Positions 16,569 through 41,155 of a DNA stretch of 41,156 nucleotides are shown here, one piece after another. The DNA comes from a virus, in the IMG/VR virus record IMGVR_UViG_3300017987_000005, positions 1 through 41,156 of that record. The stretch is one strand, 5' to 3'. The stretch's first letter is position 1. Each line of letters opens with the position of its first letter. A model generated the notes under the pieces. It made no database searches. It was given only the letters and a program-made list of their open reading frames with translations, and was not told the origin of the DNA. Made by a program: the position numbers and the translations under genes.

Positions 16569-16931
16569 TCATTTGCAGTTGTTAAACCACGCTACCGGAA
16601 CTGTCCGTTTTTTGGGTTTCCACTCACGAAATAGCGGTTGGAACGAAACGTCACTTCCAACCAACATAACGCCATCAACATCAGCTCTACGCGTCACTGA
16701 TAGCTGAAACTCTCCTGGAATGCGCTCACTATACTTCTGAGCATAGAACTTCTTGGCTAGCTCCGGAAAAGTCGCCCACGCAGCTTCCGGTACATCGCTA
16801 GCCTCCTCGTATGACACGATAAGCTTTACTGTAGAAACGTTCTGCTTTATAGCCTGTCGTAATCGTGACGTAAATTCGTCAAATATATTGACAACTTTTT
16901 TTGTCCATATAGTCGTTTTAATGGAGGCCAT
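16569..16931 (-). CDS. Hypothetical protein, WFxN tag
   Basis: Ends AWFNNCK. Confidence 0.7.
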   Translation of the reverse strand: MASIKTTIWTKKVVNIFDEFTSRLRQAIKQNVSTVKLIVSYEEASDVPEAAWATFPELAKKFYAQKYSERIPGEFQLSVTRRADVDGVMLVGSDVSFQPLFREWKPKKRTVPVAWFNNCK

Positions 16932-17313
16932 TGTTAAACCATCCGTTACAAACTCCCATATTATATCCCGGAGGAATAAAGTGTATCCGGACTTCTTTCA
17001 TATCGGACACGTATGCTTGGTCATGCGACTTGAATGCTATCTTATGGTCACCACTTCCCATATTATGTTGAGTAACTATGGCGCAGTTCCACAGAGCTTC
17101 AGCAACTTCGGTGTCTCCCTTATACTTACTCTTAATAACACTCGTAAAATAATCCTGGAACCACGAGTCAACAGTAAACGGAAGTCGTTTAAGAAGGCTC
17201 TGGCTTATCACCGCGACCTTATTCTTGAGCATGGCGTCTACAAGCTGGTCAAGTATTGCGCCGACTTCAGCATGCGTAAACTGCTGCTCGTCACTATTCC
17301 TATGCCACGCCAT
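16918..17313 (-). CDS. Hypothetical protein, WFxN tag
   Basis: Ends GWFNNGLH; start reassigned to MAWHR. Confidence 0.7.
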   Translation of the reverse strand: MAWHRNSDEQQFTHAEVGAILDQLVDAMLKNKVAVISQSLLKRLPFTVDSWFQDYFTSVIKSKYKGDTEVAEALWNCAIVTQHNMGSGDHKIAFKSHDQAYVSDMKEVRIHFIPPGYNMGVCNGWFNNGLH

Positions 17314-17641
17314 TATTAAACCACCCCCGTCCGGCGTCATTACGCAGTCTAAATATCTTCCCGTGCTCATCGTCTCCGACAAACGCATACGAACGTTTAT
17401 CAATAGCTTTATGGTGCGGATATTTCACAATAAGGTATACCATAAATAATGGAATAAAAGTCTCTTTGGTCCGCTTAGGCATAGAACTCCATAAAGCATG
17501 CGATATAGTTACGCGCAGCTCTCCCTTCTTACGACGTTTATCCAGCTCGTCAAAAATCCCACGCGTATTCTTATCAAGCTTTTTAATAGTCCTGATGAAT
17601 CCCTCCATCATCTTACGTCCACTTTTATGGCGTTTCATCAT
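17300..17641 (-). CDS. Hypothetical protein, WFxN tag
   Basis: Ends GWFNNGVA. Confidence 0.7.
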   Translation of the reverse strand: MMKRHKSGRKMMEGFIRTIKKLDKNTRGIFDELDKRRKKGELRVTISHALWSSMPKRTKETFIPLFMVYLIVKYPHHKAIDKRSYAFVGDDEHGKIFRLRNDAGRGWFNNGVA

Positions 17642-17922
17642 GACCTCCCGTTGTTAAACCAGGGGTAAACAGCAACGATGTCATAACGGACTATCTTCCG
17701 ACCATCTTCCTTCATGTGTCCTTTGCGCACGACTAGAATACGGTCGTCTATAAAAGGGATATCTTCTTTACGTACTTCGCGGATAACAATCTGAAGAAAC
17801 TTCTTTATATCCTTGACTCCGTTCTTCTTGAATAGCTGATAAGAAGCTCCGACTTTGGCTTTATTTTTACCGAACCTGCTCCTGCAACCGCCAAGTGCTA
17901 GTTCCAGGGCCATATCGCTCAT
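17638..17922 (-). CDS. Hypothetical protein, WFxN tag
   Basis: Ends PWFNNGRS. Confidence 0.7.
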   Translation of the reverse strand: MSDMALELALGGCRSRFGKNKAKVGASYQLFKKNGVKDIKKFLQIVIREVRKEDIPFIDDRILVVRKGHMKEDGRKIVRYDIVAVYPWFNNGRS

Positions 17923-19250
17923 TTTCTTTCCGCTATCTCAAATCCAAGTCTATTATAAATACGTAAATGTTTCTGAGCATATCCGCGTGCACGGTTGCTC
18001 CAGGTATCGACTATCTCAGTCACTATCGGGCGCTTCTTCTTAACAGTCGTACGCGTCAAACGTCCTATCGCCTGTTCGATGTTCGAGTGAGGCGTAGCGA
18101 GTATCATCCCGTTTAATTCCGGAATGTCCACGGCTTCACTGATGAACTGATATGTTCCGACTACAATGTCATAGTCTGAAAACGCTTTGAATACTTTTTC
18201 AGCGTTCATTCCTCCGACAGTTTTGGTCGCTTCCTCCCCTAATTCTTTTACTTGCTCAATTATCTCGGATACATGGTTAAGTCTGTGCGTCAGCACCATA
18301 ACTTTACGACCACTCTTCTTCATTTTTACGGCATGCTTCGCAATAATCGCAGTACGCTGTTTTATCTTGGCGATAGAACTTATCCACCGCGAGATGTTGA
18401 ACTTGCCGGCACGATTCCTAAATATACGGTCATCTAATCTCCCCGTAACTCCGATTTGATGCACGAGTCCTCCAACATCCATAACGCGATTCTCAGCAAG
18501 AATCGGTCCGATATGCTTAAAGAATACTCCATGTAATCCGTCTCCTCGATACGGTGTCGCAGTAAGCCCCATCATAAACTCAGGATTGAATCGAGAAGTC
18601 ACATCAAAAAACGTCGGCGCGCTGATGTGATGCGTCTCGTCCGTAACGACAAGTCCAAATGACTTATACATGCGGTCAGGATACTTCCGCGCATTAAATG
18701 ACTGAAGCATCCCGACAACAATATCCTCGGTGTACTCGCACTTATCCTGCTGAATCTTCCCAACAGTGAAATTCCCCTTGAGGAACTGCTGTATCCGGTC
18801 AAACCACTGCTGCATAATGAACTCTTTATTCACGAGTACGAGTGTGTGTACTTTGAATTGGGCTAACAAATATAACGACATCACGGTCTTTCCCGTGCCG
18901 GGCCCCGAACAGAGTATCCCTCCGACAGTCTGCTCTGCTTTACGCAAAAACTCGCTGGTCAGGCTCACTTGATTCTTACGGTCTTCATCAAGTTCCCCGT
19001 CGAACTCGACATCAATCTCCCACCCTTTAATAAGGTCGCGCTCGTCAGGCTCTCCAAACGTATCGAGTCCGTATTGACGAGGTACTCGAAAGTACTTTCC
19101 ATCCTCACGATATAAAACCATGTTCTCTTTATCGGCTATCGTCAGTCCAAAACTATTCGGACTTTCAATAAGCTCCTTCTTTATCTTCAGAACATCGTAA
19201 TCCTTCAGACGCTCCCGCTCAAGATAATACCAGTTCGACAGTATACTCAT
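17919..19250 (-). CDS. Superfamily 2 DNA helicase
   Basis: GPGTGKT, DETHH, TAT, QAIGR. Confidence 0.92.
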   Translation of the reverse strand: MSILSNWYYLERERLKDYDVLKIKKELIESPNSFGLTIADKENMVLYREDGKYFRVPRQYGLDTFGEPDERDLIKGWEIDVEFDGELDEDRKNQVSLTSEFLRKAEQTVGGILCSGPGTGKTVMSLYLLAQFKVHTLVLVNKEFIMQQWFDRIQQFLKGNFTVGKIQQDKCEYTEDIVVGMLQSFNARKYPDRMYKSFGLVVTDETHHISAPTFFDVTSRFNPEFMMGLTATPYRGDGLHGVFFKHIGPILAENRVMDVGGLVHQIGVTGRLDDRIFRNRAGKFNISRWISSIAKIKQRTAIIAKHAVKMKKSGRKVMVLTHRLNHVSEIIEQVKELGEEATKTVGGMNAEKVFKAFSDYDIVVGTYQFISEAVDIPELNGMILATPHSNIEQAIGRLTRTTVKKKRPIVTEIVDTWSNRARGYAQKHLRIYNRLGFEIAERK

Positions 19251-19504
19251 TTCTCACCATTCCGACAAGGCAACAAAGCATGCTCAGTATTAGCGATAAG
19301 TACGAGCATTTCAACTACGTCATCAATTCGTACGGCTGCGTTCAAAGGAAAATATGCGATAGTAAGCTTACACTGGTCATTGAATTGTATAATCTTCTTC
19401 ACAGTTTCCTTATCAATCTCCTTTGCAGTACGCATATACAACTTAATGGCATCGACACTGTACAGTTTCTCTGCTAATACTCTCAATAAATCTGTACTAG
19501 GCAT
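19247..19504 (-). CDS. Hypothetical protein
   Basis: Coupled between the polymerase and helicase genes. Confidence 0.6.
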   Translation of the reverse strand: MPSTDLLRVLAEKLYSVDAIKLYMRTAKEIDKETVKKIIQFNDQCKLTIAYFPLNAAVRIDDVVEMLVLIANTEHALLPCRNGEK

Positions 19505-21416
19505 AACAAATCTTAGCTCCGCAACAAGACGTAACTACATATTCTTCTTTATCGTCCGGGTCCCACGCTTTCGCTACATCCGCCCTCACGTCAATCTCAT
19601 CATCCTCGTGTGCTCCGCACTTTCCTGGGCACGTCATCGCTTTAACCCAGCGGTCACCGATATATCCATCCACTACAACAGGAACGCGAAGCTTTACTGC
19701 GTCCTCCATACATTTCGCTATTTCACAATACGTCTGAAACGGATGGTGGCGCTCATCAATCGAAAATAACAGCTCATCATGAACTTGAATCAAGGGCTTG
19801 CAATCAATTTCCGGATGAGACATCAAATAGTCGCGAACACGTTTAATAGCAACTCCCATAATATCGGCGGCGCCGCCCTGAATCGCAGAATTAAAATACT
19901 GGCGAAATGCGCGCTCACGCTCATAATCGTCCATAGAACGGTCATACGGAACTCGTCTGAATCGTCCGCTGATAAGCTTATACGGCTTTTCATCCCACAG
20001 TTTCTCACGCATATGGTCCATGAACTTCTTTATTCCCGCATACTGCTCAAAGAACTGGTCAATAAACTTGTATGCTTTGGTCTTGGATATCCCGGCTTGT
20101 TCTGAAAGGGAATTTGCTCCCATCCCATAAACAATCCCGAAGTTAATGACTTTCGCATGGCGGCGGTCATCTGTCTCCAGGAGCTTCTGAGTAGTTGCGT
20201 GAATATCGTCTCCCTTATTAAACGCCTCAATCATCCTCGGCTCGCGACTCAAATGCGCAAGTATCCGAAGCTCAATCTGACTAAAGTCCAATCCGATAAA
20301 TAGGCGCCCAGGCTCGGGAACAAATACATTCCGGAAATTCCCGTGCGTCGGCATCTGCTGCAAGTTCGGGTTGGATGCGCTCATCCGCCCCGTAACTGTG
20401 CGAACCTGATGAAATGATGGGTGTATCCGTCCGTCTGGAGAATCCTTGATAAAATGGATAAACGGCTCTGCAAACGAATCAATAAACTTCGTCAACTCAC
20501 GATGCTGAAGAAGAAGCTCCGGTATCCTATCCTTACGCTTCACTTCCCGCGCAAGCTTCTTCAGTACGGCTGCGCCGGTCCCGTAATATCCGTTCTTCCC
20601 CTTCCGGGTAATTTCGTCTACTCGAGTCCCCTTAGTAATCGCTACGGGGTATCCGAGTCCTCCTTCCTTTTTATCGCTAAACAATACTTGTGATACTTGC
20701 TGAGAAGAGGTCAAAAGAAACTTCTTTCCGACAGTCTCATAAATGAGATTCGTTACTTTCTCAATATCTCCGCGAACACGTATGCGGAAATCGCTGAGTT
20801 CTTTCGGGTCAACTTTGATTCCGTTATACTCCATATCAGAGATATATCTCGCAACATCCATCTCGAGTTCAAGAAGAACGCGCAGTAAATTCTGATTTTC
20901 AATCTCTTTAATCAGAGCTTTGAACAGCATAAAAGTATAATGCCCGTCCTCTTTCGCATACTCTTCTAATGAAGGTACTTCCTCACTCTCCTCAAAAAAC
21001 GTTCCCTCCATCTCCGCAATAGCTTCATACGGAATCATATCATGGTCAAAAAAACGCTTAACCAAATGGTCAAGCGAATACTGCTTATAATTTTCGTCCA
21101 GTAGCCACGCAGCAATCATGGTACATACGAGCTGACAATCGGGTTCAATTCCCCACTTGTACTTCAGCCACTTATAATCGAATACCATGTTGTGCGCTAT
21201 CAACCACGCATCTTTTCGCTTGCACACTGCTTCAAGCACAGGCTTCCCATCGTCCTTGGGGAACCAGAAGTCGCCATCTACAGTTGAGATGGCGACTCCT
21301 TTAATTTCCCCTGTACGTGGAGTAAGACTGGTAGTCTCGAAATCGAAAACTACGTGTTCACGCGACGATACGGAGTCGAGGCACTTAGAAAGGGACGGCT
21401 CCGGGGTCGTCGTCAT
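19497..21416 (-). CDS. polA: Family A DNA polymerase with 3'-5' exonuclease
   Basis: DFETT exo I; DFSQIELR motif A; RRHAKVINFGIVYG motif B; QVHDEL motif C. Confidence 0.96.
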   Translation of the reverse strand: MTTTPEPSLSKCLDSVSSREHVVFDFETTSLTPRTGEIKGVAISTVDGDFWFPKDDGKPVLEAVCKRKDAWLIAHNMVFDYKWLKYKWGIEPDCQLVCTMIAAWLLDENYKQYSLDHLVKRFFDHDMIPYEAIAEMEGTFFEESEEVPSLEEYAKEDGHYTFMLFKALIKEIENQNLLRVLLELEMDVARYISDMEYNGIKVDPKELSDFRIRVRGDIEKVTNLIYETVGKKFLLTSSQQVSQVLFSDKKEGGLGYPVAITKGTRVDEITRKGKNGYYGTGAAVLKKLAREVKRKDRIPELLLQHRELTKFIDSFAEPFIHFIKDSPDGRIHPSFHQVRTVTGRMSASNPNLQQMPTHGNFRNVFVPEPGRLFIGLDFSQIELRILAHLSREPRMIEAFNKGDDIHATTQKLLETDDRRHAKVINFGIVYGMGANSLSEQAGISKTKAYKFIDQFFEQYAGIKKFMDHMREKLWDEKPYKLISGRFRRVPYDRSMDDYERERAFRQYFNSAIQGGAADIMGVAIKRVRDYLMSHPEIDCKPLIQVHDELLFSIDERHHPFQTYCEIAKCMEDAVKLRVPVVVDGYIGDRWVKAMTCPGKCGAHEDDEIDVRADVAKAWDPDDKEEYVVTSCCGAKICYA

Positions 21417-22122
21417 AGTCTACATCTCCTTCATCTGAAAAATCACTGTCATCGTCACTGGAAGAGCTTTTTCCGTGCTTCTTCCCACGCCATTCCGCAA
21501 GGTGAGCAATCTCCTTCATATCACTCTTTGAATAAGGCTGGAGAATCTCTTCGTAATCAATGGAATCATAATCGTCCACGTCTTCTTTCTCAACGTAGTC
21601 CCAATCATCCCCGACTACGGGCGCTTGCTTTGCTCCGGTACGCGTGACAGAGAACCGCTTCCCTACAATCCCCTTGAGTTTCTTATGCTTTGCGCGCAGA
21701 AGCTCCAGAGTGTAGTACTTCGCGGGGAGGAGGCAGACAATGTCCTTTACTTCGTCTCCGTCCTTGTTTGTGTAGCCCGTGTGGTCTACAATGGTGAAAA
21801 ATCCGGTATGCGAGGCTTTGTTCCCCGCGTCACACAACGGGCATGTTCCCTTTTTGGGATTCCCCCGACCATCGCGTCTTGCGATGCAAGTCGCATGTCC
21901 AGGACTGTCATCAATCCAATAGGTATGCTCAAATACTCTGAAGCACTTGTCATCAACGAAAGAAAGCTCTTTCGTCTCATCCTTCGGAATCCAGAAACGC
22001 TTCGGGACAGGTTCATCATTCTTGTCCTTCTTCTGCCACCACGCATATCCGCTTCCACCCCCTCCTGATGAGGGGAAATCTTCCGACGACGGCATCCCGG
22101 TATCAAACCATTTGTCTCCCAT
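21385..22122 (-). CDS. Putative single-stranded DNA-binding protein
   Basis: Lies between primase and polymerase; CPLC; acidic tail ending VPF. Confidence 0.7.
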   Translation of the reverse strand: MGDKWFDTGMPSSEDFPSSGGGGSGYAWWQKKDKNDEPVPKRFWIPKDETKELSFVDDKCFRVFEHTYWIDDSPGHATCIARRDGRGNPKKGTCPLCDAGNKASHTGFFTIVDHTGYTNKDGDEVKDIVCLLPAKYYTLELLRAKHKKLKGIVGKRFSVTRTGAKQAPVVGDDWDYVEKEDVDDYDSIDYEEILQPYSKSDMKEIAHLAEWRGKKHGKSSSSDDDSDFSDEGDVDYDDDPGAVPF

Positions 22123-22174
22123 AACTTGTTCCTTTCTGTCTTAGTAAGACATCACGCTAACTCAAAATGAGTTG

Positions 22175-23164
22175 CTACTTATGGACTTTCTTTTTAGTCC
22201 GGCTTTTCGGTTCTCTTCGAACCACTGTTCTGTTGTCGAACAATTCGACAAGCTCTTCTCTGGATAAATCGCAAGGGTCTTTTCCTTCGGGCAACTCGCA
22301 CTTAAAAAGCATCGGCACATGGTCATACAGATACTTCTTCACGGAACGCTCAAGCTTCTTTCCTCCTTCGTCACCGTCCGCCATAGTAGTCAGACTGTTC
22401 ACTCTCTTGAGGATATCCACTTGATACTCGCTGACTGAACTTCCGTTAGCTCCTAACGGTCTTACCCCATCCTTGAATCCATCCAGGTGTAAAACATCCA
22501 ACTGTCCTTCGACGAGCACTACATCATCACCCCCTTTCAAAAACTGCTCTCCAAACAGACAAAGTTCTGCGCAAGTTCCTTTCTCGTACAGCCAACGTTT
22601 TCGACGGTCATCTTTATCCGTCGATAATAATCTCTTAGCAGCACCGACTATGTTTCCCAATGAATCCTTCATTGGTAAAACAAGGTAGTCTCCGTGCTGT
22701 TGGATATCGAACTTATCGATGCAATCAATTGCAATTCCGCGATATATGAGATAATCATAAACGCGAGAACTGGCAGGCGTGTAACGCGCCATCCACTCAA
22801 CATTAAACTCTAGTGTCTCCCCTTCTCCGAACAACCCATCATCCCACGTAAAATCCCGCTCATCTTCGTCAAGCATCTCTTCGAGTTTATCGCACTTCTC
22901 TTCAGGAAATCCAAGCTCCTTCAAAACTGCGACCATATAACCCAAAGAACCCCCGCCAGTCTCGCAGGAAAAACAATGAAATAAATGCGGCTCCTCAATA
23001 CGGATAGATGCGTTACCGAGCTTCTTATCCACTCCGTTCTTATGTTTCCAATGAGCAAATGGACAGCTTATCACGATATTCTCGATACGATGTTTACGAA
23101 AATCGTGTAATTGGTACTTTACTCCCAATATATTCAAGAATTTGATAAGCTCTTCGCGCTTCAT
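22175..23164 (-). CDS. dnaG: DNA primase
   Basis: Zn finger CPFAHWKH..CFSC; TOPRIM VEGQLD, DGDEGG, KDP. Confidence 0.9.
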   Translation of the reverse strand: MKREELIKFLNILGVKYQLHDFRKHRIENIVISCPFAHWKHKNGVDKKLGNASIRIEEPHLFHCFSCETGGGSLGYMVAVLKELGFPEEKCDKLEEMLDEDERDFTWDDGLFGEGETLEFNVEWMARYTPASSRVYDYLIYRGIAIDCIDKFDIQQHGDYLVLPMKDSLGNIVGAAKRLLSTDKDDRRKRWLYEKGTCAELCLFGEQFLKGGDDVVLVEGQLDVLHLDGFKDGVRPLGANGSSVSEYQVDILKRVNSLTTMADGDEGGKKLERSVKKYLYDHVPMLFKCELPEGKDPCDLSREELVELFDNRTVVRREPKSRTKKKVHK

Positions 23165-23198
23165 GCATCACTCTCACGATACTAAATAGACTGCTTGT

Positions 23199-23226: not shown

Positions 23227-23239
23227 GTAAAAAATAACT

Positions 23240-24192: not shown

Positions 24193-24221
24193 AAGTATTA
24201 AAAAAAGAAGTAAGCTTGATT

Positions 24222-26167: not shown

Positions 26168-26992
26168 CTAAAATAATATGCTGGCTGGAGAATCCCAACT
26201 CGTATACATGTGTCCGTCCTCCTGGTATATCAGGCTCCGGATATCTTCATTGTGATTCACGCTCTGGACACACTCGTCAAACATCGTAACAGCAATCCCC
26301 TCGAAATCATATACAACTGCTCCGAAAGGAAGCGTACGAAGAACTCGCGCGTCGTCCTTCAAATAACTGAACTGGTCTATAACGCGCTGATACGCTTCTG
26401 CGCACTTATGCTCAGTTATCCACTTGATTACATCAATACACCCTTCGGTCAATCCTTTCGGAACAACAATATTCCTGAAGGATAGTTGGTGTACGTTGGT
26501 CTCTTTGGCAAGTTCGATGGCATATCCGAAATCAAAGTCTTCGGAAAATTTATCAGTCAGGTTCAACGTTGCTCTGACTAACATTCCGTACTTTCTAATG
26601 AACTTCATCATATCAGAAAGCTCTTTCCACTGAGCTAAAGAATCAATTGAAAATGCTACGGTGCTCAGATAGTCGCTCCCGAATATCGTTTTATTTTTTG
26701 TCCAGTTTTTGAGCATGCTTATCCCGTTAGTCTGCATCTCAATAGGGAACTCTGAAAAAACTTCCCCGATTCGTTCACAAGCATTTTTGTTAAGAGTAGG
26801 CTCACCCTTCCCTGTAATCAGGATAGAACTCACTTGAGCAGCTTTAGCTACTGTCCGAGCTTTGACCATATTCCAATAAAACTGCTCGTCATCGTCCGTG
26901 TCCATGTACCCAGTCATCTTAGAGACGCAATAAGGGCAGTCCTTATCGCATCCTTTATAAGGTACACTGATTGTCAGGTTTTGCGCTCTCAC
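26168..26992 (-). CDS. Radical SAM protein
   Basis: CDKDCPYC; TGKGEP; QTNG. Confidence 0.9.
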   Translation of the reverse strand: MRAQNLTISVPYKGCDKDCPYCVSKMTGYMDTDDDEQFYWNMVKARTVAKAAQVSSILITGKGEPTLNKNACERIGEVFSEFPIEMQTNGISMLKNWTKNKTIFGSDYLSTVAFSIDSLAQWKELSDMMKFIRKYGMLVRATLNLTDKFSEDFDFGYAIELAKETNVHQLSFRNIVVPKGLTEGCIDVIKWITEHKCAEAYQRVIDQFSYLKDDARVLRTLPFGAVVYDFEGIAVTMFDECVQSVNHNEDIRSLIYQEDGHMYTSWDSPASILF

Positions 26993-28011: not shown

Positions 28012-28039
28012 ATTATATCATATATATTATATATGTCAA
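28012..28039 (-). promoter_or_regulatory. sigma70-type promoter
   Basis: TTGACA-N16-TATAAT, extended -10 TG. Confidence 0.85.
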
Positions 28040-28047: not shown

Positions 28048-28248
28048 TCAAAAATTATTAAACCATGCTTTCGGCCTTGGCGGAACAAACGGCATTAGCG
28101 TGAAATCTATATTGATTACATCAACAGGGCGCGGATTCAACAACACGGTGGCTTTAATAGCTCCGTCCTCAACGCGAACCTCGTTAATGCTCTTAACTCC
28201 TCGACCGAGCATGTCCTGAATTATTTCTTCAGTAAACTTTTCTACCAT
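28048..28248 (-). CDS. Hypothetical protein, WFxN tag
   Basis: Ends AWFNNF; start reassigned to MVEKF. Confidence 0.7.
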   Translation of the reverse strand: MVEKFTEEIIQDMLGRGVKSINEVRVEDGAIKATVLLNPRPVDVINIDFTLMPFVPPRPKAWFNNF

Positions 28249-28669
28249 TGTCAAACCACGCTCCCGTTCCACTTGAAACTGTAACAACAGGCTCCGGCTC
28301 TTCCGCTGGAGGGAAATCCATTCCGTGACGTTCAGCCATAACAGCACTGGAGTCGATGCGGTCTACAAGTATCTTAGTCTCATAAATAACTTCTGACGGC
28401 CCCGCTGCGTTGGCGTAAAACTCTATTACCATCCCTTCCCCTACAACGTATCCCCCAGGCTTCTCTGTCCCCCAATTGCGCCCATCAAAATACACCTTCT
28501 CTCCGGGAGCGGCTATATCTTCGTTACTCTGAACAGTACAATAAATCTCCGGTGGGCGCATAGGAAGAAAAGAGTGCTCTCCTGTAGCATAGCAAATCTC
28601 CTCGCTATGCGGGTCTCCGGTCTGCTCCCACGTAAGCGCCTGGCGTTCAGAAAATCTACTTAAAGGCAC
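28229..28669 (-). CDS. Hypothetical protein, WFxN tag
   Basis: Ends AWFDNGRKVY. Confidence 0.7.
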   Translation of the reverse strand: MPLSRFSERQALTWEQTGDPHSEEICYATGEHSFLPMRPPEIYCTVQSNEDIAAPGEKVYFDGRNWGTEKPGGYVVGEGMVIEFYANAAGPSEVIYETKILVDRIDSSAVMAERHGMDFPPAEEPEPVVTVSSGTGAWFDNGRKVY

Positions 28670-28891
28670 TTATCTTCTCCCGTTATCAAACCATGCGTTC
28701 GTAGGTACATACGGCTTATAGTATCTAAAATTATCCAGAGCTTTTTTCAAGTTATCACACTTAACTGCTACTGGCGTCATCGCGGAAAATGCGTAACTCA
28801 ACGCATCTACCATGTGGTCAGCAGTAGTTCCGACTGCTCGGCTAAACTCTGACAAGCTCTTGCTTAAAGCGGCAATGCTATCCACGTCCAT
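28670..28891 (-). CDS. Hypothetical protein, WFxN tag
   Basis: Ends AWFDNGRR; start reassigned to MDVDS. Confidence 0.7.
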   Translation of the reverse strand: MDVDSIAALSKSLSEFSRAVGTTADHMVDALSYAFSAMTPVAVKCDNLKKALDNFRYYKPYVPTNAWFDNGRR

Positions 28892-29066
28892 TGTTAAACC
28901 ACGCCCCGACAGTCGTTTTTTTAATGAAAGACACTTCGGATTCAATTCCCATCTCCACAGACATTGACTCAGCTTTTATTTTTCTTCTTCGTTCCAGTTC
29001 TTTTTCTACTAGTTTGAGTTTTCCGAGGTCTTTTGCTATCGCTCGTGCGCTTCTTTTCCCAGCCAT
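28878..29066 (-). CDS. Hypothetical protein, WFxN tag
   Basis: Ends AWFNNGRG; start uncertain. Confidence 0.6.
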   Translation of the reverse strand: MAGKRSARAIAKDLGKLKLVEKELERRRKIKAESMSVEMGIESEVSFIKKTTVGAWFNNGRG

Positions 29067-29525: not shown

Positions 29526-29840
29526 CTACTTCAAAAACTCGTGACAATTCCCGCAATAACGATGCTCAACATCGTTCCGGCTATAGCTGGTCATCCCGCA
29601 TTTTTTGCAAGTGATTGCAGTTCCGTTCTCAACAATCTCGAATTCCGGCTCCGGAGCATCTCCGAGATACATCGTCTCCCCGCAACACACGGGCCATCCA
29701 CTAATAAGACATTCCTTCAGGTCAACAATCACAGTCTTTCGACAGAATCGGCACTGGCACGTCTTCGGCATCTTATCCGATGCTTCTGCATACATGTACT
29801 GCAAACGTTCTCGACTTGGAAGTGCTTCTCCGATTTCCAT
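29526..29840 (-). CDS. Hypothetical double Zn-ribbon protein
   Basis: CRFC, CCG, CKKC, CGNCH. Confidence 0.7.
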   Translation of the reverse strand: MEIGEALPSRERLQYMYAEASDKMPKTCQCRFCRKTVIVDLKECLISGWPVCCGETMYLGDAPEPEFEIVENGTAITCKKCGMTSYSRNDVEHRYCGNCHEFLK

Positions 29841-30082
29841 TACTTCCTCCCGTTCTCAAACCAATACTTACGCGGGTATATTCGAACAATCCGAAGCTTA
29901 TACGGCTCTCCGGAATTCTCATTAAAATTATCTACAAAGTTTTCAATATTTTCTTCATCTACAAAACTAGCTAAATCATTAAGAGCCGTATGATTAACGG
30001 GGGTCAGAACAGAACCGTCGGTAATCGACAACAAATCTTCCCCGCCTACCGCATGTACTGAAGCGTGTTCCGAATCGCTCAT
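29840..30082 (-). CDS. Hypothetical protein, WFxN tag
   Basis: Ends YWFENGRK. Confidence 0.65.
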   Translation of the reverse strand: MSDSEHASVHAVGGEDLLSITDGSVLTPVNHTALNDLASFVDEENIENFVDNFNENSGEPYKLRIVRIYPRKYWFENGRK

Positions 30083-32408: not shown

Positions 32409-32870
32409 TCACTCTCCTGAAACGCGAATACTTTTTTCGCGTTTCATCCTTTCAAACATTTCTGCCGGCAACGTCTGCTCCACGTCTCCTGCTTTCAACG
32501 TAACATAACTCGAAGGGTCAAATCCAAACAACCCGGAAATAATCCCGGTTATAATCCGGTCGATATTATGTATCTGCTCAAGGCACTCATCCCGAGTCTG
32601 GCGATGTTTCTCGCGGAGCCTGTTACCGTTATCAATAGTATGCTCAAACATCTCACGGGACGTGCATAACGATTTTACATACGTATTAACAACATCTAAT
32701 CCCGTTGTTTTGTTCTCAGACATACCTACATCCTCCGATTTGATAATATCGTCAGTATTCCTCCAGTTATTAAACCACTTTCTCGGTTCCGAAGGTCTGC
32801 CCTGTAAAGATAGAACATCATCGATGCACTTCTTTACATGCGCAGTTGATAATATCCTATGCTCCTGCAT
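32409..32870 (-). CDS. Hypothetical protein with internal WFNN (possible fusion)
   Basis: KWFNNW near residue 32; internal SD GGAGG plus ATG (MSENK). Confidence 0.6.
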   Translation of the reverse strand: MQEHRILSTAHVKKCIDDVLSLQGRPSEPRKWFNNWRNTDDIIKSEDVGMSENKTTGLDVVNTYVKSLCTSREMFEHTIDNGNRLREKHRQTRDECLEQIHNIDRIITGIISGLFGFDPSSYVTLKAGDVEQTLPAEMFERMKREKSIRVSGE

Positions 32871-33209: not shown

Positions 33210-33638
33210 TTATGCATAAGCTTCAACCTTACTGTTATTAAACCACGCTTTGATAGGAAATATTCGCTTAATCATCCAGGCGTGCCCACACTTTACGGGG
33301 CTAAGTCTGCTATCCCTGTGAGGTCTTAGTGTTACGGTCACTTGTATTCGGCGCTGTATGTGACGCTCCCCGTAGCCAAGGTCCTTTATAAAAATATTCA
33401 CACGAAAATCCCTATCTGGCTGCATGGTCGTATTCACTTCAATCGCTACTTCAATAGAAGTCTTAAAATCTTCTTCAGTCCATCGTGCGGCAAACTTACT
33501 TCCAATGGTGTCAAGACGCAATCCAACTATCTGCATCAACTCGATATGCTCAAGAATCTCGGCGGGCATCTTTCCGCTCTCAAGTTCACGAGCTATCTCT
33601 TCGACGCGCGTCCTCCCTAGTGCATCCACATAAGCCAC
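33210..33638 (-). CDS. Hypothetical protein, WFxN tag
   Basis: Ends AWFNNSKVEAYA. Confidence 0.7.
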   Translation of the reverse strand: MAYVDALGRTRVEEIARELESGKMPAEILEHIELMQIVGLRLDTIGSKFAARWTEEDFKTSIEVAIEVNTTMQPDRDFRVNIFIKDLGYGERHIQRRIQVTVTLRPHRDSRLSPVKCGHAWMIKRIFPIKAWFNNSKVEAYA

Positions 33639-34093
33639 TACTTCTCTCCGTTATCAAACCACGCGTCATTCGTATTAGACAACGCTGGCACGAATTTTTT
33701 ATTCTTATCGATAACGTATGACGCGCTCGGAGTCGTCATCCAATCGTCTACAAATACTCTCGCGCTAACATTTATGACATCCGTATCAAAATGACTATAT
33801 GCGATATCGATAATAAACGAACCGGCAGGAAATCCGAACTCCTTCATCCGGTCATTAATGTAATCAGTATACATTTTAAGCTCGCTGTGCTGAATGTATG
33901 CAAGACACCTAGCAACATATTCCTCGACTCCCGCAATAATATCCTTGACTTTCTCACATACCATATCTGCAACGCGGAGCGGGTCTCCATCTCTGAAGTC
34001 TTCTTCATTAACTTCAAATAATTGTCGCAACTTAGCTGAGTCCAAGTCTCTACTCCATCCAACTACTCGATTGTACTTATATTCCGATTCCAT
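33638..34093 (-). CDS. Hypothetical protein, WFxN tag
   Basis: Ends AWFDNGEK; start MESEY. Confidence 0.7.
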   Translation of the reverse strand: MESEYKYNRVVGWSRDLDSAKLRQLFEVNEEDFRDGDPLRVADMVCEKVKDIIAGVEEYVARCLAYIQHSELKMYTDYINDRMKEFGFPAGSFIIDIAYSHFDTDVINVSARVFVDDWMTTPSASYVIDKNKKFVPALSNTNDAWFDNGEK

Positions 34094-34532
34094 TTTCAAA
34101 CCACCGCTGGCGGTCCCATACTTTCAACTTATACTTCATCCGGACTCCCGGATATCCAAGCTTGTAATTAACTTCAAATATCCCGATATATATTTCCTGA
34201 CGAATCCGAGAGTCGTATACTTTTATACTTCCTTCAACAACAGGTCCCATCCGATGCTGGTTAGCTATACGTTTATCAGATATGTCAAGGTCTACCTCAC
34301 AAATAATCGGCTCAAAGCGATTACTATACATTCTTCGATTAACTTCCCCATCGACAATATTCTCAACAAGAAACATCAACTTCCGACGCTCACTAAGTAT
34401 ATCAAGGTCTCCATACTCAACACGGTCATAGTCAGCCGCCAAAACAGCGTAGTGAACTGCATTCAACAATTCAGCATACGTCTCCGGATGTGGCGTCGGT
34501 ACAGGTCTCCTGTGTAAATCAGAAGGACGCAT
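34077..34532 (-). CDS. Hypothetical protein, WFxN tag
   Basis: Ends RWFENGIGI. Confidence 0.7.
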   Translation of the reverse strand: MRPSDLHRRPVPTPHPETYAELLNAVHYAVLAADYDRVEYGDLDILSERRKLMFLVENIVDGEVNRRMYSNRFEPIICEVDLDISDKRIANQHRMGPVVEGSIKVYDSRIRQEIYIGIFEVNYKLGYPGVRMKYKLKVWDRQRWFENGIGI

Positions 34533-35007
34533 CTGCTATCACCTTTCCGAACCACGGGTCGCGCTTCGATATCTTGAAATTCCCAGTCCCGAGATGTCTA
34601 TGGATGGCTGGATTGTATCCGTGCATCTCGCTTTGCTTCGACCACTCAAACTCGACATGAACTCGAGAAGGAGCTTTCAGCGGTCCGACACAAAGCGTCC
34701 ATAAAAACGCTCCCATCATATCCCCCTCAACGCGAACAAGGACATATCCCTTATACATATCCAGCTCAGGATATGCGGCGTTTCGCGCTGCCATCAGCTC
34801 AACTCTGTTGAACATTGAATCACTCTTCTTGTTCTTGTGATAAGTGGTCGTCATAAGCGTCGTCAGTTTAGTCGAGTTCTCTTTGCTGATGTCGCGAATA
34901 TCCTCATCGAATGCATAGACATTCTGGAGTGATTTTTCCATTACCGACTTCAATCGTGTCCCGATAATCTCCAGGTCCATAGCTAAAGCAAGTTCTTCTC
35001 TATTCAT
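34519..35007 (-). CDS. Hypothetical protein, degenerate WF tag
   Basis: Ends PWFGKVIADASF. Confidence 0.7.
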   Translation of the reverse strand: MNREELALAMDLEIIGTRLKSVMEKSLQNVYAFDEDIRDISKENSTKLTTLMTTTYHKNKKSDSMFNRVELMAARNAAYPELDMYKGYVLVRVEGDMMGAFLWTLCVGPLKAPSRVHVEFEWSKQSEMHGYNPAIHRHLGTGNFKISKRDPWFGKVIADASF

Positions 35008-35297
35008 GCTGACATTCCATTATCAAACCAACGCTCAGTCCGCCCTTGAGTCAATGCCCATATAAAACGCTCTCTCAACTGACGGTCAGTATACTCGTGA
35101 CGACAATGCTCATGGATATGCTGACGTAACCAGCCATTGGCGAGTTGGAGTTCAAAGCGGTCATCCCCCGGATGAATCGGTTGACGACATATCATACAAG
35201 GGTACGTCAACTGATGTCCCGCAGCTTCATCAAAACGCACTTCAAGATAGGCGTCTCTCAGCACACTTCGAACAAACTGCTGTCGCGTCAAAATCAC
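35004..35297 (-). CDS. Zn-finger protein, WFxN tag
   Basis: CMICRQPIHPGD...HEHC; ends RWFDNGMSA. Confidence 0.7.
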   Translation of the reverse strand: MILTRQQFVRSVLRDAYLEVRFDEAAGHQLTYPCMICRQPIHPGDDRFELQLANGWLRQHIHEHCRHEYTDRQLRERFIWALTQGRTERWFDNGMSA

Positions 35298-35318
35298 TCT
35301 CCTAAAAGCTTCACTTAT

Positions 35319-35346
35319 ATTATATCATATAATAATGATATGTCAA
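35319..35346 (-). promoter_or_regulatory. sigma70-type promoter
   Basis: TTGACA-N16-TATAAT, extended -10 TG. Confidence 0.85.
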
Positions 35347-35353
35347 CTAAATT

Positions 35354-36649: not shown

Positions 36650-36658
36650 TTATATTCC

Positions 36659-36922
36659 TCACTCGAACAAATCTCCTATGAAATCGTCCGGGTTGGTAGT
36701 GGGTTCGGGTTTCTCCCTCTTCTCCTTTTTCGGTGGATTCAAAATATCATCCGCCATCTTAACGCAAGTGGGTTCTTCGTCGAACAATGCTACCGGCCCA
36801 TACAGTCCGTCTACATCAATGCGCTTAAGGTCGGCCCATAAATCCATGACCGATTTAGCAAGCTTAGTCAGCTTCTTTGATGTCGCCAAGAGCTTCCCTC
36901 CAGTTGTATTCGCTGACGTCAA
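36659..36922 (-). CDS. Hypothetical protein
   Basis: Lies between the loader and helicase genes. Confidence 0.5.
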   Translation of the reverse strand: MTSANTTGGKLLATSKKLTKLAKSVMDLWADLKRIDVDGLYGPVALFDEEPTCVKMADDILNPPKKEKREKPEPTTNPDDFIGDLFE

Positions 36923-37511
36923 CGAACATGGCTTTTTCGACGGTCATGCTTATAACTTTCCCGGTCAGGAATTCTTTAATCTCATCTCCCTCGGGGTCTA
37001 AATTAGTCGTGATAATAAGCGAACGGTCATTGTTGTAACGAGTCGAGCAAACCCACTCAAGAAGCTCAACTACAACTTCCTTGTTACGACCGCTGCCGAT
37101 ATCATCAAGCAGCAGAATATTAGCATCGCGAATCACTTGCTCAAGCGAATACTGTCCGAACGGAACATGGTCTGAATTCAGCTTGTAGTCAACAAGCTCG
37201 TTCTGCGTAATCATGAACGCGCTTCCGTCATGAAGCAAAACTTCTTTCAAGATGATAGCTCCCGCTCCAGTCTTACCGGTCCCGAAAGGTCCGTTCATAA
37301 ACAACCACCTGCCGGCGTCTACGTACTTCTTGATATTGTCCGCCCACTCCTGGACAATCTCCCGATACATGCACGTATCCGGAATCTGTTCAATCGAGCA
37401 TCCCCTGAACTTCAGAGGAACGTTCCCGAGGTCGAGAAGACGATTAACAAGAAGTGCATCTTCTTTCGTCTTCCGGTCCCTACCCTTGGTTAACACTCTT
37501 CCTAGCATCAC
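36864..37511 (-). CDS. DnaC/IstB-like AAA+ helicase loader
   Basis: GPFGTGKT, LLLDDIG, RY, ITTNL. Confidence 0.9.
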   Translation of the reverse strand: MMLGRVLTKGRDRKTKEDALLVNRLLDLGNVPLKFRGCSIEQIPDTCMYREIVQEWADNIKKYVDAGRWLFMNGPFGTGKTGAGAIILKEVLLHDGSAFMITQNELVDYKLNSDHVPFGQYSLEQVIRDANILLLDDIGSGRNKEVVVELLEWVCSTRYNNDRSLIITTNLDPEGDEIKEFLTGKVISMTVEKAMFVDVSEYNWREALGDIKEAD

Positions 37512-38601
37512 CTGGTCTCCTTACTAAGCCTTTTGGCATACTGTAATCATAATCCGAACGTCGGTCTATAAAATGTTTTGACTTTGGTTTTCCTGCGTGC
37601 ATCATCGCTTGAAAAGTCCCAAACCACTGCGAGAACACAAGGCTGATAGTCGGGAACTGCTGAAAGTCATTCTTCTTGGCTATGGCTTTCCAGTTATCGA
37701 ATACAAAATCAATCACGTCCCTAATCTCTTCGATATCGCTGGTACGTTCAAGCATGTTCTTTATCAGCTTCCGTTCCTTCGCAAAATTTATGTTGAGCTT
37801 CTTTCCGGAAAGCTCGTGGTAACGATGTTTGAAGTAGGTCTCGAAATCAACCGTCTCCCAACTGTGGACGTCTTTCGGTCTTTCTCTTTTTGGCTTCGGC
37901 TCCTTCATGGCTTCGGTCAAGCTTCTTTTTTCATCTTCCATGTATCCGTACTTGCTTGAATGTTTCAGCGTACTACCTGTGCTCAAACGAGCTAATTTTT
38001 GGTCTTTCTCTGATAAAGAAGAATTATACGCTTTATCACTTGAGCCGTGAGGCTCAAGTTTTTCTTTTTTCTCTTCTTCTCTTTCTTCTTTTCTTTGTAT
38101 TACTTTCTTTTCTTCTTTCTCTTCTTCTCTTTTTTCTTTTTGCTGATTGGTGACATTTTTGTCACGTGTGGTATTTTCGTCACATATCGCCATCGCAGAA
38201 ATCACGTTAAAATCAGACACCTGAACGTCCAGCAATGTGTTCAGCAGATTCTCAGCCTGTCCAGAAAACTTTAGCGATGAGGTCGAATGGTCGTGGATAA
38301 TATATTTATTCCGACGACTGTTCAGTCCGGCAGGTATCTCGAGAAGATTTTTCTCGCACAGCTCTTCGATAGCTCGCATGATTGTCCGGCGATTTTTCTG
38401 AACAGCATCAGAAAGAACTTGCTGCGTCGGGAACTCTAGCGGCTCCTGGTAAACGTAGCTCATCATCGTCGCAAAAACAATCTTGGACGTGCTCGAAATG
38501 TTACTGGCATAGATAGTCGCCCACAACGTCTCAATCCACTTTGAATCGTGATGGAAAGTGAACTTTTTTGAGTACGGGTCGTATGAGACAATAGTTCCCA
38601 C
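37480..38601 (-). CDS. Putative replication initiator (wHTH)
   Basis: FPTQQVLSDAVQKNRRTIMRAIEELCEKNLLE wHTH; K/E-rich linker; upstream of the loader; start reassigned to GTG after SD GGAG. Confidence 0.75.
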   Translation of the reverse strand: MGTIVSYDPYSKKFTFHHDSKWIETLWATIYASNISSTSKIVFATMMSYVYQEPLEFPTQQVLSDAVQKNRRTIMRAIEELCEKNLLEIPAGLNSRRNKYIIHDHSTSSLKFSGQAENLLNTLLDVQVSDFNVISAMAICDENTTRDKNVTNQQKEKREEEKEEKKVIQRKEEREEEKKEKLEPHGSSDKAYNSSLSEKDQKLARLSTGSTLKHSSKYGYMEDEKRSLTEAMKEPKPKRERPKDVHSWETVDFETYFKHRYHELSGKKLNINFAKERKLIKNMLERTSDIEEIRDVIDFVFDNWKAIAKKNDFQQFPTISLVFSQWFGTFQAMMHAGKPKSKHFIDRRSDYDYSMPKGLVRRPGDARKSVNQG

Positions 38602-38692
38602 GCATTTTCTCCAAAAGGGGTTATGAGGACATTCTATCACCATGTCCCCGACTGTCAAGCAAAAAATATAAAAAATGTGACAAAAATGTCAC
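38150..38692. repeat. Palindrome GTGACAAAAATGTCAC, two exact copies (38150-38165 inverted, 38677-38692)
   Basis: One copy inside the initiator gene next to a purine/pyrimidine-skewed AT-rich tract, one upstream of its promoter; half site at 38710. Confidence 0.7.
38631..38658 (-). promoter_or_regulatory. sigma70-type promoter of the initiator operon
   Basis: TTGACA-N16-TAGAAT, extended -10 TG, upstream T-tract. Confidence 0.75.
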
Positions 38693-38702
38693 GCATCGTG
38701 GA

Positions 38703-39230
38703 TTAATTGGTGACAAAAACGCGCAATCGGTCCCAATTTTTGATGAAAACAGCAAAATAATCGCAAAAAAACTCATTATCAGCTCTGGTAAATTCTCGGT
38801 AATCTTCTGAAAAATTCTCGTCATACAGGTCGCTCGCTTTGTAACTGATTGGAAAACTGAACCCGAACCATGACTTGATTTTGCGTATCAGCGGATTCCA
38901 GTAATAGAATTTTTCCAGGAATGAGAACCATCGTTTCTTCCGCATCTTTGTCATCACATTTGCTAGCGTTCCGTACTCGTTATAGTACATCTCGTTGAAT
39001 AACACGTGACCGAGTTCGTGCAGCAAACTCAGTCGCGTCAACACTGACAGTTTAGCAAGTTTTTCCGGGACAAAAACTGTGTAGTGAGTCGATTCTCCGC
39101 GACGAATCCACTGCACGTAAAATCCTTTTCCATTATGCAGTTTTATTTCGATGCGCTCGCGTATATTTTTGCACTCGATTGCACTGCTGACAAACTCTTC
39201 AATCATCTTCAACAAGTTCTGCTTCTCCAC
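38703..39230 (-). CDS. Putative zincin metallopeptidase (ImmA/IrrE-like)
   Basis: LLHELGH plus NEFFCDYFA. Confidence 0.6.
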   Translation of the reverse strand: MEKQNLLKMIEEFVSSAIECKNIRERIEIKLHNGKGFYVQWIRRGESTHYTVFVPEKLAKLSVLTRLSLLHELGHVLFNEMYYNEYGTLANVMTKMRKKRWFSFLEKFYYWNPLIRKIKSWFGFSFPISYKASDLYDENFSEDYREFTRADNEFFCDYFAVFIKNWDRLRVFVTN

Positions 39231-39426
39231 TCATAACTCCTTTCCAATCCGGTCGTTCTTTAGTCGAATTATCACAGATATAAAGACTCCTACTCGCTGT
39301 ATCATAATAGAACTCTCCGACACTCGGGTTGTCAGGATAATTCGGTACCAATTCAATCTCGTCAACAATCACATTTTTAATTTGAAAACGATTGTTGAAC
39401 CAGATGTATTTTCGGTCTACACTCAT
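39199..39426 (-). CDS. Hypothetical protein with N-proximal WFNN
   Basis: YIWFNNR; GEFYYDT...LYIC...W motif. Confidence 0.6.
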   Translation of the reverse strand: MSVDRKYIWFNNRFQIKNVIVDEIELVPNYPDNPSVGEFYYDTASRSLYICDNSTKERPDWKGVMSGEAELVEDD

Positions 39427-39785
39427 ATCGAAACTGCCCGTCCATTATCAAACCAACTTGAATGAATACTCGACGCGGTTTTCATCCCGGTTACGTGTCT
39501 GTAAACAGTCCCGTCCGGGTCAAAATCAAAGACGAATTCGCACACCGCATGCTGACGATTATCGGTCGTCCAAAGTCGCCACGTATAGTCACGATTTCTT
39601 TTGAAATGATAACGATGTTTTAATGTCGTTTCAACAAGCGTTTCGAATATGTCGAGACGCTTATTTGTACGCGGAATCTCCTCCGATTTTTTGACAGCAC
39701 TACACCAGTTGCGGTCCAAGAATACGCGGAAAGTTCCCGCCTCCCACGCAGCTATAATTTGCTCTTCTTCAGACATCATAACCAC
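39423..39785 (-). CDS. Hypothetical protein, WFxN tag
   Basis: Ends SWFDNGRAVSI. Confidence 0.7.
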   Translation of the reverse strand: MVMMSEEEQIIAAWEAGTFRVFLDRNWCSAVKKSEEIPRTNKRLDIFETLVETTLKHRYHFKRNRDYTWRLWTTDNRQHAVCEFVFDFDPDGTVYRHVTGMKTASSIHSSWFDNGRAVSI

Positions 39786-40336
39786 TTCAAATTCCCATGC
39801 TTTACAAAGTGCTCATATTCAGTATACTCTGCTTCAAAATTGTGCCGTCCTTTTTTGTGCTCTTTGTTGTAATAATGACCGCCGCCGTCTCCAAATCCGG
39901 CAATAAAAATCTCCGCTTTTGGAAATGCTTCCCGAGCAGTCATTACTCCCATAAATCCGGTCGAAGGTATCGTACCAAAACGCTTCTCATACTTCGCCCA
40001 AACTTTCTCCGAATAGAATCTGATATCATCATTCGACACGCCCGCATAGCGAAGTAAAAACTGGACAATATTTCCATCAAGATTGAAGTGAACTCCGTTC
40101 ATCCACAGCTCTTCAATCGCACCTGAATTCGCGTCACATTTTCCGGCTTGTCTATAGAGTAAGTTGTACACAGAGTGATGCGCTACACACCAGTGAGTCG
40201 TCCTGCTTCCAAGGTCTTTTTCAAACCCCTGGATTCTGAAATCATTAAACCGGACAATTTTACTGCACCGGTCTATTTTCTTTCCTAAGTTTGAGCCGAT
40301 TAAACTCGGGGCATTTCCTATAATAACTACTTTCAT
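39776..40336 (-). CDS. GT29 (sialyltransferase-like) glycosyltransferase
   Basis: VVIIGNAPSL..LGKKID..IVRFN..DLGSRTT (L motif); PSTG..IAGF (S); HYY (III); HNFEAE (VS). Confidence 0.8.
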   Translation of the reverse strand: MKVVIIGNAPSLIGSNLGKKIDRCSKIVRFNDFRIQGFEKDLGSRTTHWCVAHHSVYNLLYRQAGKCDANSGAIEELWMNGVHFNLDGNIVQFLLRYAGVSNDDIRFYSEKVWAKYEKRFGTIPSTGFMGVMTAREAFPKAEIFIAGFGDGGGHYYNKEHKKGRHNFEAEYTEYEHFVKHGNLKWL

Positions 40337-40686
40337 GCTTGACGTCTCCTTCCGTTACTGAACCATTGGCGCAAGCGTAAGCGCAGAGCTAGCTCCTGTT
40401 TATTATATTGTCTGACAAGCTCGTGCTCAACCATCGCTTCAAGCGCTCCGGTCTCTCCCTTTTTGTAGCACTCGTCTACGCATTCCGGACACATTGAGAC
40501 TCTCATAAAGATATACTTTTTCCTAATAAAAGTCCAGTGACATGTGCCGCGAGTCCTCACGCAGTCCCCGGCTACGAGTGGTTTCCTGCATATAAAACAC
40601 GTCGTGTCACACCCTTTATTTACAAGTGTGGAGCAGTGCGTAATCGTTCCTAAATCTTCGACTTGCATATACCATTCTCGAACCAA
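40333..40686 (-). CDS. Zn-finger protein, WFxN tag
   Basis: CFICRKPLVAGD...CPEC; ends QWFSNGRRRQA. Confidence 0.7.
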   Translation of the reverse strand: MVREWYMQVEDLGTITHCSTLVNKGCDTTCFICRKPLVAGDCVRTRGTCHWTFIRKKYIFMRVSMCPECVDECYKKGETGALEAMVEHELVRQYNKQELALRLRLRQWFSNGRRRQA

Positions 40687-41087
40687 GGAATCACTTCTAA
40701 ACTCATCAACGTATCACTCCACTTCGGCACATGTTTCCAGCTATCGTGCTTAAAAAACGTATAACGCACTTCCGGGTCATCGGTACCCACTTCGTAAAAA
40801 ACGCATAATCCGATATCCAGCTCCCAGTCGTGAAAAGTAAGCATCCCCATTTTTCCGTCGCGACGAAGACTGGTTCCCGTAAGTGCGAATCGCTGCCTGT
40901 ACTCCATCAGTTCTTTGTGAATAAATGATTCGACATGGAGAGCTACTCCATGAGAAACATAAAACGGACTTTCATACAGAGAATGATTAAAACTCGCCAC
41001 GTACACGGCATGCTTAAGCGGGTCTGCTATCTTATACAGGAATTCCCGTATTTCTTTCAAATCCTCTTCAGCAATCTCGATAGTCAC
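40650..41087 (-). CDS. Hypothetical protein, WFxN tag
   Basis: Ends PWFENGICKSKI. Confidence 0.7.
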   Translation of the reverse strand: MTIEIAEEDLKEIREFLYKIADPLKHAVYVASFNHSLYESPFYVSHGVALHVESFIHKELMEYRQRFALTGTSLRRDGKMGMLTFHDWELDIGLCVFYEVGTDDPEVRYTFFKHDSWKHVPKWSDTLMSLEVIPWFENGICKSKI

Positions 41088-41155
41088 TGTCGCGTCCTCT
41101 GATTATTAAACCACGCCGGCTTATAATCCGGCACTATCTTTCCCTCATTAAATCG
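41084..41155 (-). CDS. Partial ORF (C-terminus), WFxN tag
   Basis: ...RFNEGKIVPDYKPAWFNNQRTRQ*. Confidence 0.6.
   Translation of the reverse strand, partial: RFNEGKIVPDYKPAWFNNQRTRQ

Follow-up and report, generated by a model that had tools for sequence, protein, structure and literature searches.

In large phages, the majority of small genes lack an assigned function and offer no means of grouping, and the genome of an uncultured marine-sediment phage raises the question of why many such genes should encode the same short peptide near the end of otherwise different products. The window analyzed here is the first 41 kb (41,156 nucleotides) of the 183,648-base virus record IMGVR_UViG_3300017987_000005 (46% GC), which has been detected in sediment and seawater metagenomes. 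A preliminary description of this window listed 17 minus-strand open reading frames (ORFs) bearing W-F-[NDES]-N with the Trp 5-11 residues from the end; all 17 carry it, amounting to 17 of the 97 genes called in the window. This peptide, hereafter the tag, is probably a short linear docking motif, borne by about 40 small accessory proteins on ends that are presumably flexible. Being portable, it would place approximately one sixth of the small non-structural proteins under a single partner, and so turn 40 unknowns into one testable question.

Position and coding of the tag

Across the whole genome, W-F-x-N lies within the last 20 residues of 38 of the 321 gene products, compared with 0.15 expected from composition. 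The C-terminal enrichment proposed earlier also held against a shuffled control run genome-wide, as 500 residue shuffles gave a mean of 0.13 and a maximum of 2. The tagged proteins are all 62-203 amino acids long, and the flanks of the tag are rich in Pro, Lys and Arg. Position 3 is N in 23 cases, D in 10, E in four and S in one (n = 38), while position 5 is Gly in 23 of 38. The C-terminal placement originally described is correct for these 38 genes, but genome-wide the Trp lies 5-19 residues from the end, and internal or N-terminal copies also occur (8 versus 1.4 expected). The motif floats along the proteins and is not strictly terminal. A WFGK variant noted earlier is present in ORF 34519-35007, although it is a doubtful member because its position 3 is not N, D or E. 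In one tagged protein folded without an alignment, pLDDT fell below 50 at residues 111-124.

Near-variants of the tag (WFDE, WFES, WFEP, WFND and WYDN) are also found at or near protein ends, at genome positions 142137-142688, 55546-55803, 70912-71412, 148800-149195 and 42964-43377. One of them lies at the N-terminal end of a protein resembling the terminase small subunit, and homologues of that protein in five outgroup phages are without it.

The motif had been reported as always in frame, and this was borne out by the DNA 12-mer pattern TGGTTYRANAAY, which occurs 44 times on the coding strand, in the coding frame in all 44 cases, and not once on the opposite strand. Of these matches, 37 are C-terminal and seven are internal or N-terminal. 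Ten orthologue pairs with 30-61% identity all retain the Trp, the aromatic residue and the Asn, with exchanges of TTT/TTC, AAT/AAC, N/D/E and F/Y. In one related genome (G011), two tagged orthologues are 32% identical and both have the tag; its polymerase, helicase and single-stranded DNA-binding protein (SSB) are 70-73% identical, and the enzymes encoded nearby reach 70-75%. Because diverged orthologues keep the tag through synonymous swaps, and because the frame test gave the same answer, selection acts on the peptide, as had been suggested. The Phe codon of the tag is TTT in 33 of 38 cases, a higher share than the 58% seen genome-wide (p 2e-4); this excess is explained by context, since Phe before N, D or E in the bodies of the same genes is encoded by TTT at the same rate (27 of 33). 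A DNA or RNA element as the selected unit is thus ruled out by the frame test and the codon context.

The same results bear on the idea that the tag is a feature of translation, either a nascent-chain signal in the ribosome tunnel (a TnaC-like W-F-N) or an mRNA element coupling the next gene. The codons after the motif often hold a Shine-Dalgarno-like purine run of the next gene, the next gene's ATG falls within the Asn-Gly codons of the tag (AAT GG) about eight times (window positions 16931, 28891, 34093 and others), and the TTT preference would also be in keeping with such a role. This explanation is nonetheless scarcely credible: besides the 44 in-frame matches and a TTT excess equal to the context rate, the stop lies anywhere from 5 to 19 codons away, the frame and offset of the next gene vary, and N-terminal copies are conserved. 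TnaC-type arrest peptides have a fixed Trp spacing and a conserved last residue, neither of which is seen here. The overlap with the next gene probably shapes only the residues after position 4.

C-terminal degrons (ssrA or AA-COOH) differ from the tag in a similar manner, having a fixed terminal position where the tag has a variable distance to the end, variable last residues and N-terminal copies. An Ala-Ala end is the C-terminal ClpXP degron of alphaproteobacteria. Rhizobium phage V1VFA-S (W02, MT778838.1) presents a separate case, with an Ala-Ala end in 25 of 183 called genes versus 2.9 expected and F-G-x-F near the end of seven more. Homeodomain helix 3 (W-F-x-N-R-R) and MORN-variant hairpins (W-Y-E-N-G) look like the tag; identity with either was rejected, since the flanks are neither helical nor repeated and position 4 is free in relatives, and the resemblance is read as convergence.

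Tagged proteins in this phage and its relatives

The bodies of the tagged proteins were described as mostly dissimilar. By sequence they are unrelated save for a few pairs, but fold classes do recur, namely tail-sheath-C/gp25-like and Cys-rich bodies. A single expanded paralogue family was considered and rejected, as only a few pairs match once the tags are removed and, among 39 members, no two fall in the same Pfam or PHROG family. The body of the gene at genome positions 43742-44116 (L001:2742-3116) gave a hit to the C-terminal portion of tail sheaths (phrog_23, E 2e-4), and VIA gave sheath and gp25 folds for it at Z 7.6-8.8, a moderate result; Foldseek with a single-sequence model of this gene returned nothing under E 0.001. 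A weak model of the ORF ending at 33638 resembles the same sheath-C/gp25 fold (TM 0.53-0.57). CxxC motifs occur in seven tagged bodies, one body is WGR-like by eye, and two fall in unannotated PHROGs. Taken as a group, the bodies look like small binding modules, not enzymes. The earlier statement that no recognizable enzyme is tagged is correct for C-terminal tags, which occur in none of the 67 genes longer than 210 amino acids, but the SSB has a related WFDTG at its N-terminus.

Three stand-alone sheath-C/gp25-like copies (genome 43742-44116; window 33638-34099 and 28048-28248) are located among early genes, far from the tail module. It is possible that these copies are decoys for defence sensors.

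The distribution of the tag among gene classes is uneven, with 38 of 232 small non-structural genes tagged and none of the 51 virion-module genes. This is relevant to the proposal that the tag serves as a signal for virion loading or decoration. The capsid targeting sequence of T4 and the encapsulin targeting peptides resemble the tag in that one short peptide is common to unrelated small proteins, and a short motif following a Pro/Lys-rich linker near the C-terminus specifically recalls the encapsulin peptides. In addition, the capsid is of HK97 type, several bodies are like tail-protein domains, and T4 internal proteins are also early genes, which counts in favor of loading. However, the structural module is free of tags, and ten more distant phages with capsids 35-48% identical (51-100% complete) show no enrichment of the tag or of a comparable terminal motif. 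The T4 signal is an N-terminal leader of ten residues that has a prohead-protease site and is cleaved, unlike the mostly C-terminal, floating tag, and in encapsulin systems the targeting peptides are aliphatic and come from genes next to that of the shell; neither has any sequence likeness to the tag. Virion loading is thus very unlikely. The capsid-loading and export roles offered in the preliminary description are unsupported, given the same count of structural genes and the start of one tagged run directly behind a perfect sigma-70 promoter; among the roles it proposed, recruitment to a hub fits best.

Relatives were contigs reached via helicase, MoxR and SSB homologues, representing about six lineages, all fragments of 3-27 kb. 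Viral-contig scans with the capsid, helicase and SSB as single proteins, and with a MoxR alignment, returned no relatives, and a GTDB scan returned distant cellular MoxR only. In L164, eight genes end in W-Y-[DNE]-[KRGAN], seven of them with a Pro before and a Gly after (the PWY flavor). Eight genes of the type W-[FY]-[DNE]-[GN] are found in L166, four WYDG genes in L168 and three tagged genes in L015. The L164 contig is filed at NCBI under a bin named Elusimicrobiota bacterium, which is either a weak host hint or a binning artefact. The core common to the lineages is W-[FY]-[DNE]-x-(G), with one preferred flavor per genome (for example WFNNG, WYDGG or PWYDKG). The narrower consensus W-F-[N/D/E/S]-N-(G) and its invariant Asn at the fourth position therefore describe this genome correctly, but not the relatives, in which K, R, G or A may occupy position 4.

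Freedom at position 4 also weighs on the possibility that the tag is a modification or cleavage site, whether for an aromatic-Asn/Asp cross-link of the radical-SAM type (triceptides, dynobactin) or for an HExxH peptidase. Cross-links of the W-x-N and W-x-x-N kind are known, the phage has two radical-SAM genes (26168-26992; genome 176184-177020) as well as three proteins with HExxH, and in three relatives a gene bearing the motif is followed by the peptidase gene 38703-39230. We consider this highly improbable, however. Neither radical-SAM protein (274-278 amino acids) matched the SPASM family, the tag lies at variable distance from the end, and no leader is shared; a SPASM maturase and a shared leader are features of the radical-SAM cyclophane class of ribosomally synthesized and post-translationally modified peptides.

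Gene 61742-62203 is untagged in this genome, and its orthologue is tagged in both L166 and L168. On this comparison of orthologous bodies, the tag is separable from the body and is portable. A motif that is uniform within a genome and changes between genomes is the pattern expected from one co-evolving reader. It is likely that one partner grips all of the tags through their two aromatic residues. Of the earlier claim for a docking tag with one partner, the first part is supported, since the tag behaves as a short linear motif that can appear on or disappear from the same orthologous body; the single shared partner is soundly inferred.

The SSB arm and candidate partners

A search for near-matches of the tag found the phage SSB (21385-22122), which starts with WFDTG at residues 5-9. 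The six best Foldseek matches of its core are all T4 or RB69 gp32 (best E 6.6e-4). In the AlphaFold model, residues 1-30 form a low-confidence arm that precedes the folded core, and the arm is probably flexible, judging from this model. Six homologues (25-74% identity) have WYDEG, WFDTG (twice), WYKKG, WFMGG and WYSSG in the arm, so that the W and the G are invariant across the seven aligned proteins, and the arms of three cultured phages read WLKTG, FLKKG and FLKRG. From these alignments, the arm motif is more widespread than the tag and fits the tag core in the tagged clade. The chance of W[FY][DNE]xG in the first ten positions of a given gene is 1.7e-4, a figure computed after the match was seen. 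The comparison of arms with tags covers the genomes for which an SSB sequence is available, and leaves out L015, L164, L166 and L168, where it is missing.

The tag-poor genome G013 offers a more specific correspondence. A 112-amino-acid protein (34542-34880, in L303) ends in an exact copy of the WFDTG of its own SSB and begins with WYKTG, where 0.014 occurrences of W[FY]DxG in the last 20 residues would be expected per genome. This protein is possibly a two-handed SSB linker, to judge by its two termini. A WYMSG ending in G001, which would match the SSB arm of that genome, was left uncounted because the coding score of its ORF is weak (4.3).

In T4, the N-domain of gp32 binds the core of the adjacent subunit on single-stranded DNA (ssDNA) (PMC12893549). 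The protein described here is similar in having a gp32 fold and an N-arm with a conserved short motif, and it is the pattern of this motif that the tag matches. A plausible reading, which we place somewhat short of probable, is that the tag copies the SSB N-arm, uses the same binding site and tethers its cargo to phage ssDNA. The tags would dock at the site of the SSB arm; in the simplest case this is the core of an SSB subunit bound to phage ssDNA, and the alternative is a replisome protein that reads the arm. On this view the variable bodies (Zn-binding, WGR-like, sheath-C/gp25-like) would accumulate where phage DNA is being replicated and could bind host factors there or obstruct them, a conjecture drawn from their fast divergence. 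Consistent with such a location, the tagged genes sit among replication genes and outside the virion module. A further and doubtful extension is that a phage clade has made the cooperativity arm of its SSB into a general address label, with dozens of fast-evolving accessory proteins carried along on SSB-coated phage DNA and surrounding the replicating genome with counter-defence or decoy modules that can be exchanged. Should the SSB prove to be the partner, a gp32-type protein would have a new role as the hub to which accessory proteins are addressed, and this would point to a route to the reader of a tag, namely to seek the same motif in a conserved core protein. No report was found of other proteins bearing copies of a gp32 arm as a label.

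Several observations weigh against tethering through the SSB, and the binding of the tag to this protein is a putative step. Within the same genome, position 4 is T in the SSB arm and N in all 38 tags. The arm of G011 is WY and both of its tags are WF. The Gly that is invariant in the arm is missing from 15 of 38 tags, and G001, G002 and G003/G005 have the same arm and essentially no tags. The match itself is a loose five-residue pattern found after the fact. Finally, the T4 arm is basic (KRKST) and acts through basic residues, the LAST motif, not aromatic ones (PMC12893549, PMC10484735), whereas the arm here is aromatic (W-[FY]-x-x-G) and lacks a LAST motif; the function of the aromatic arm is therefore itself inferred.

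The tag may also be compared with motifs that are read by replication hubs in general. Such linear motifs include the beta-clamp and PIP motifs, the gp45-binding C-termini of T4 and the acidic tails of SSBs. They share with the tag a short hydrophobic motif on flexible ends or in linkers, through which unrelated proteins use one pocket. Their known clients, however, are a few conserved enzymes, and here there are approximately 40 small, fast-evolving proteins, no enzyme is C-terminally tagged, and the consensus is different. A literature search for 'WFNNG' and for a shared phage C-terminal motif, which left most subscription journals uncovered, found no published description of the tag. As far as was searched, the tag is probably undescribed; it would work like the known hub-binding motifs but lies outside their families, and its partner is putative.

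The main alternative partner is the phage-encoded MoxR-type ATPase (genome 74383-75564; L146:3383-4564) with its metallopeptidase-vWA protein (genome 71775-74219), or a neighboring SWIM protein, by which tagged proteins would be remodelled, activated or clipped. The pair is intact, with AAA_5, CbbQ_C and CobT_C domains and conserved HExxH and MIDAS residues. Four loci with tags encode close homologues of it (57-71%) within a few kb of tagged genes, and the ten tag-free capsid relatives have no detectable homologue. A proposed role of vWA domains is peptide capture on behalf of MoxR (PMC7159879), and jumbo phages are known to encode the pair (PMC7824862). The present pair resembles the phage CobS/CobT-like pair (PMC7824862, PMC8651126) and NorQ-NorD (PMC13036017) and marks the tag-bearing clade, although no shared client tag is described in those papers. 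We nevertheless consider this reader unlikely. The ATPase is not sufficient for the tag, because five cultured phages with a CobS-type ATPase have no comparable tag. The proximity of MoxR to tags is partly a matter of selection, as the loci were fetched through the MoxR gene, and the presence or absence of the pair is a single clade split, or one event. The MIDAS site normally binds a carboxylate, but position 3 of the tag is Asn in 23 of 38 cases, and the tag is not tied to a free C-terminus. Complex prediction for MoxR, two domains of the vWA protein and a 33-residue tag peptide gave a score of 0.00, which is no evidence either way. The motif is absent from the C-terminus of the vWA protein itself.

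Two further features of this locus were recorded. MoxR has a clade-specific N-terminal domain of approximately 100 amino acids that is winged-helix-like by eye and has no family match, and the gene order of a 269-amino-acid protein, the SWIM protein, MoxR and vWA is fixed in all relatives seen.

The partner might instead be a host protein, such as a protease adaptor, a chaperone, or a replication or transcription hub, with the flavor of the tag following the host. At least one tagged run lies behind a host-type sigma-70 promoter, the bodies evolve fast in the manner of proteins in host conflicts, and the gp25-like fold of two bodies (Z 7.7 for one) is one that the anti-adaptor IraD employs as well. 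Against this, the phage's own SSB family already has the pattern at a conserved position, and the consensus matches no bacterial docking motif or degron known to us. A host partner is therefore distinctly unlikely, and the SSB arm site remains the favored candidate.

Feature positions and neighboring genes

Nearly all genes are on the minus strand. The nearest cultured match of the HK97-type capsid protein (homologues PF05065) is 33% identical, and the genome also encodes a tail sheath, a family A polymerase, two helicases and a primase. The tags, related motifs and promoter matches of the window are collected in Table 1.

Table 1. Tags, related motifs and promoter matches in the window (window coordinates).
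Feature	Position	Strand	Remarks
Tag WFNN	16578..16589	-	ORF 16569-16931, 120 aa
Tag WFNN(G)	16930..16941	-	ORF ending 16918; tag kept in 32%-identical G011 orthologue
Tag WFNN(G)	17312..17323	-	ORF 17300-17641; WFDN in 32%-identical orthologue
Tag WFNN(G)	17650..17661	-	ORF 17638-17922
gp32-fold SSB, 245 aa	21385..22122	-	Low-confidence N-arm (1-30), folded core, acidic tail; candidate motif source and receptor; AlphaFold model and Foldseek
SSB N-arm motif WFDTG	22096..22110	-	Residues 5-9; W5 and G9 invariant in seven aligned homologues
Perfect sigma-70 promoter match (12/12, extended -10)	28012..28039	-	Just behind tagged run 28048-29066; consensus match only
Tag WFNN	28054..28065	-	ORF ending 28048; body like last strands of tail sheath (by eye)
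Tag WFDN(G)	28247..28258	-	ORF 28229-28669
Tag WFDN(G)	28682..28693	-	ORF ending 28670
Tag WFNN(G)	28890..28901	-	ORF 28878-29066; ATG of next gene inside tag
Tag WFEN(G)	29852..29863	-	ORF 29840-30082
Internal copy WFNN	32766..32777	-	Near N-terminus of ORF 32409-32870
Tag WFNN	33234..33245	-	ORF 33210-33638; kept in 50%-identical orthologue
Tag WFDN(G)	33650..33661	-	ORF ending 33638; body sheath-C/gp25-like (TM 0.53-0.57); orthologue WFEN(G)
Tag WFEN(G)	34092..34103	-	ORF 34077-34532
Variant WFGK, doubtful member	34543..34554	-	ORF 34519-35007
Tag WFDN(G)	35019..35030	-	ORF 35004-35297, Cys/His-rich body
Perfect sigma-70 promoter match (12/12, extended -10)	35319..35346	-	Directly ahead of tagged run 35297 to 33210; consensus match only
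N-terminal copy WFNN	39391..39402	-	ORF 39199-39426; also N-terminal in orthologues of 59% and 30% identity
Tag WFDN(G)	39444..39455	-	ORF 39423-39785; orthologue WFNN(G)
Tag WFSN(G)	40354..40365	-	ORF ending 40333, two CxxC; identical in orthologue
Tag WFEN(G)	40674..40685	-	ORF 40650-41087
Tag WFNN	41102..41113	-	ORF ending 41084; gene start outside window, genome 41530

Two genes in the vicinity of tagged runs merit description. A sialyltransferase-like protein is encoded at 39776-40336 (minus strand), within the tagged gene runs, and its L012 orthologue matches PF00777, glycosyltransferase family 29. The HExxH metallopeptidase-like protein at 38703-39230 (minus strand) has no Pfam match and is 45-58% identical in three relatives, where its gene is always located directly after a W-[FY]-motif gene and directly ahead of a block of replication initiator, loader and DnaB genes.

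No RNA holder is listed for the region. There are 18 tRNA calls in the window, and TROVE (2021-3523) and RtcB (7846-9015) were recognized by motif. A small protein at 13641-13997 (minus strand), 75% identical in G011, has by eye the GGPGGQ motif typical of ArfB-type peptidyl-tRNA hydrolases. The combination of this ArfB-like protein with TROVE, RtcB and many tRNAs suggests a ribosome-rescue and RNA-repair kit.

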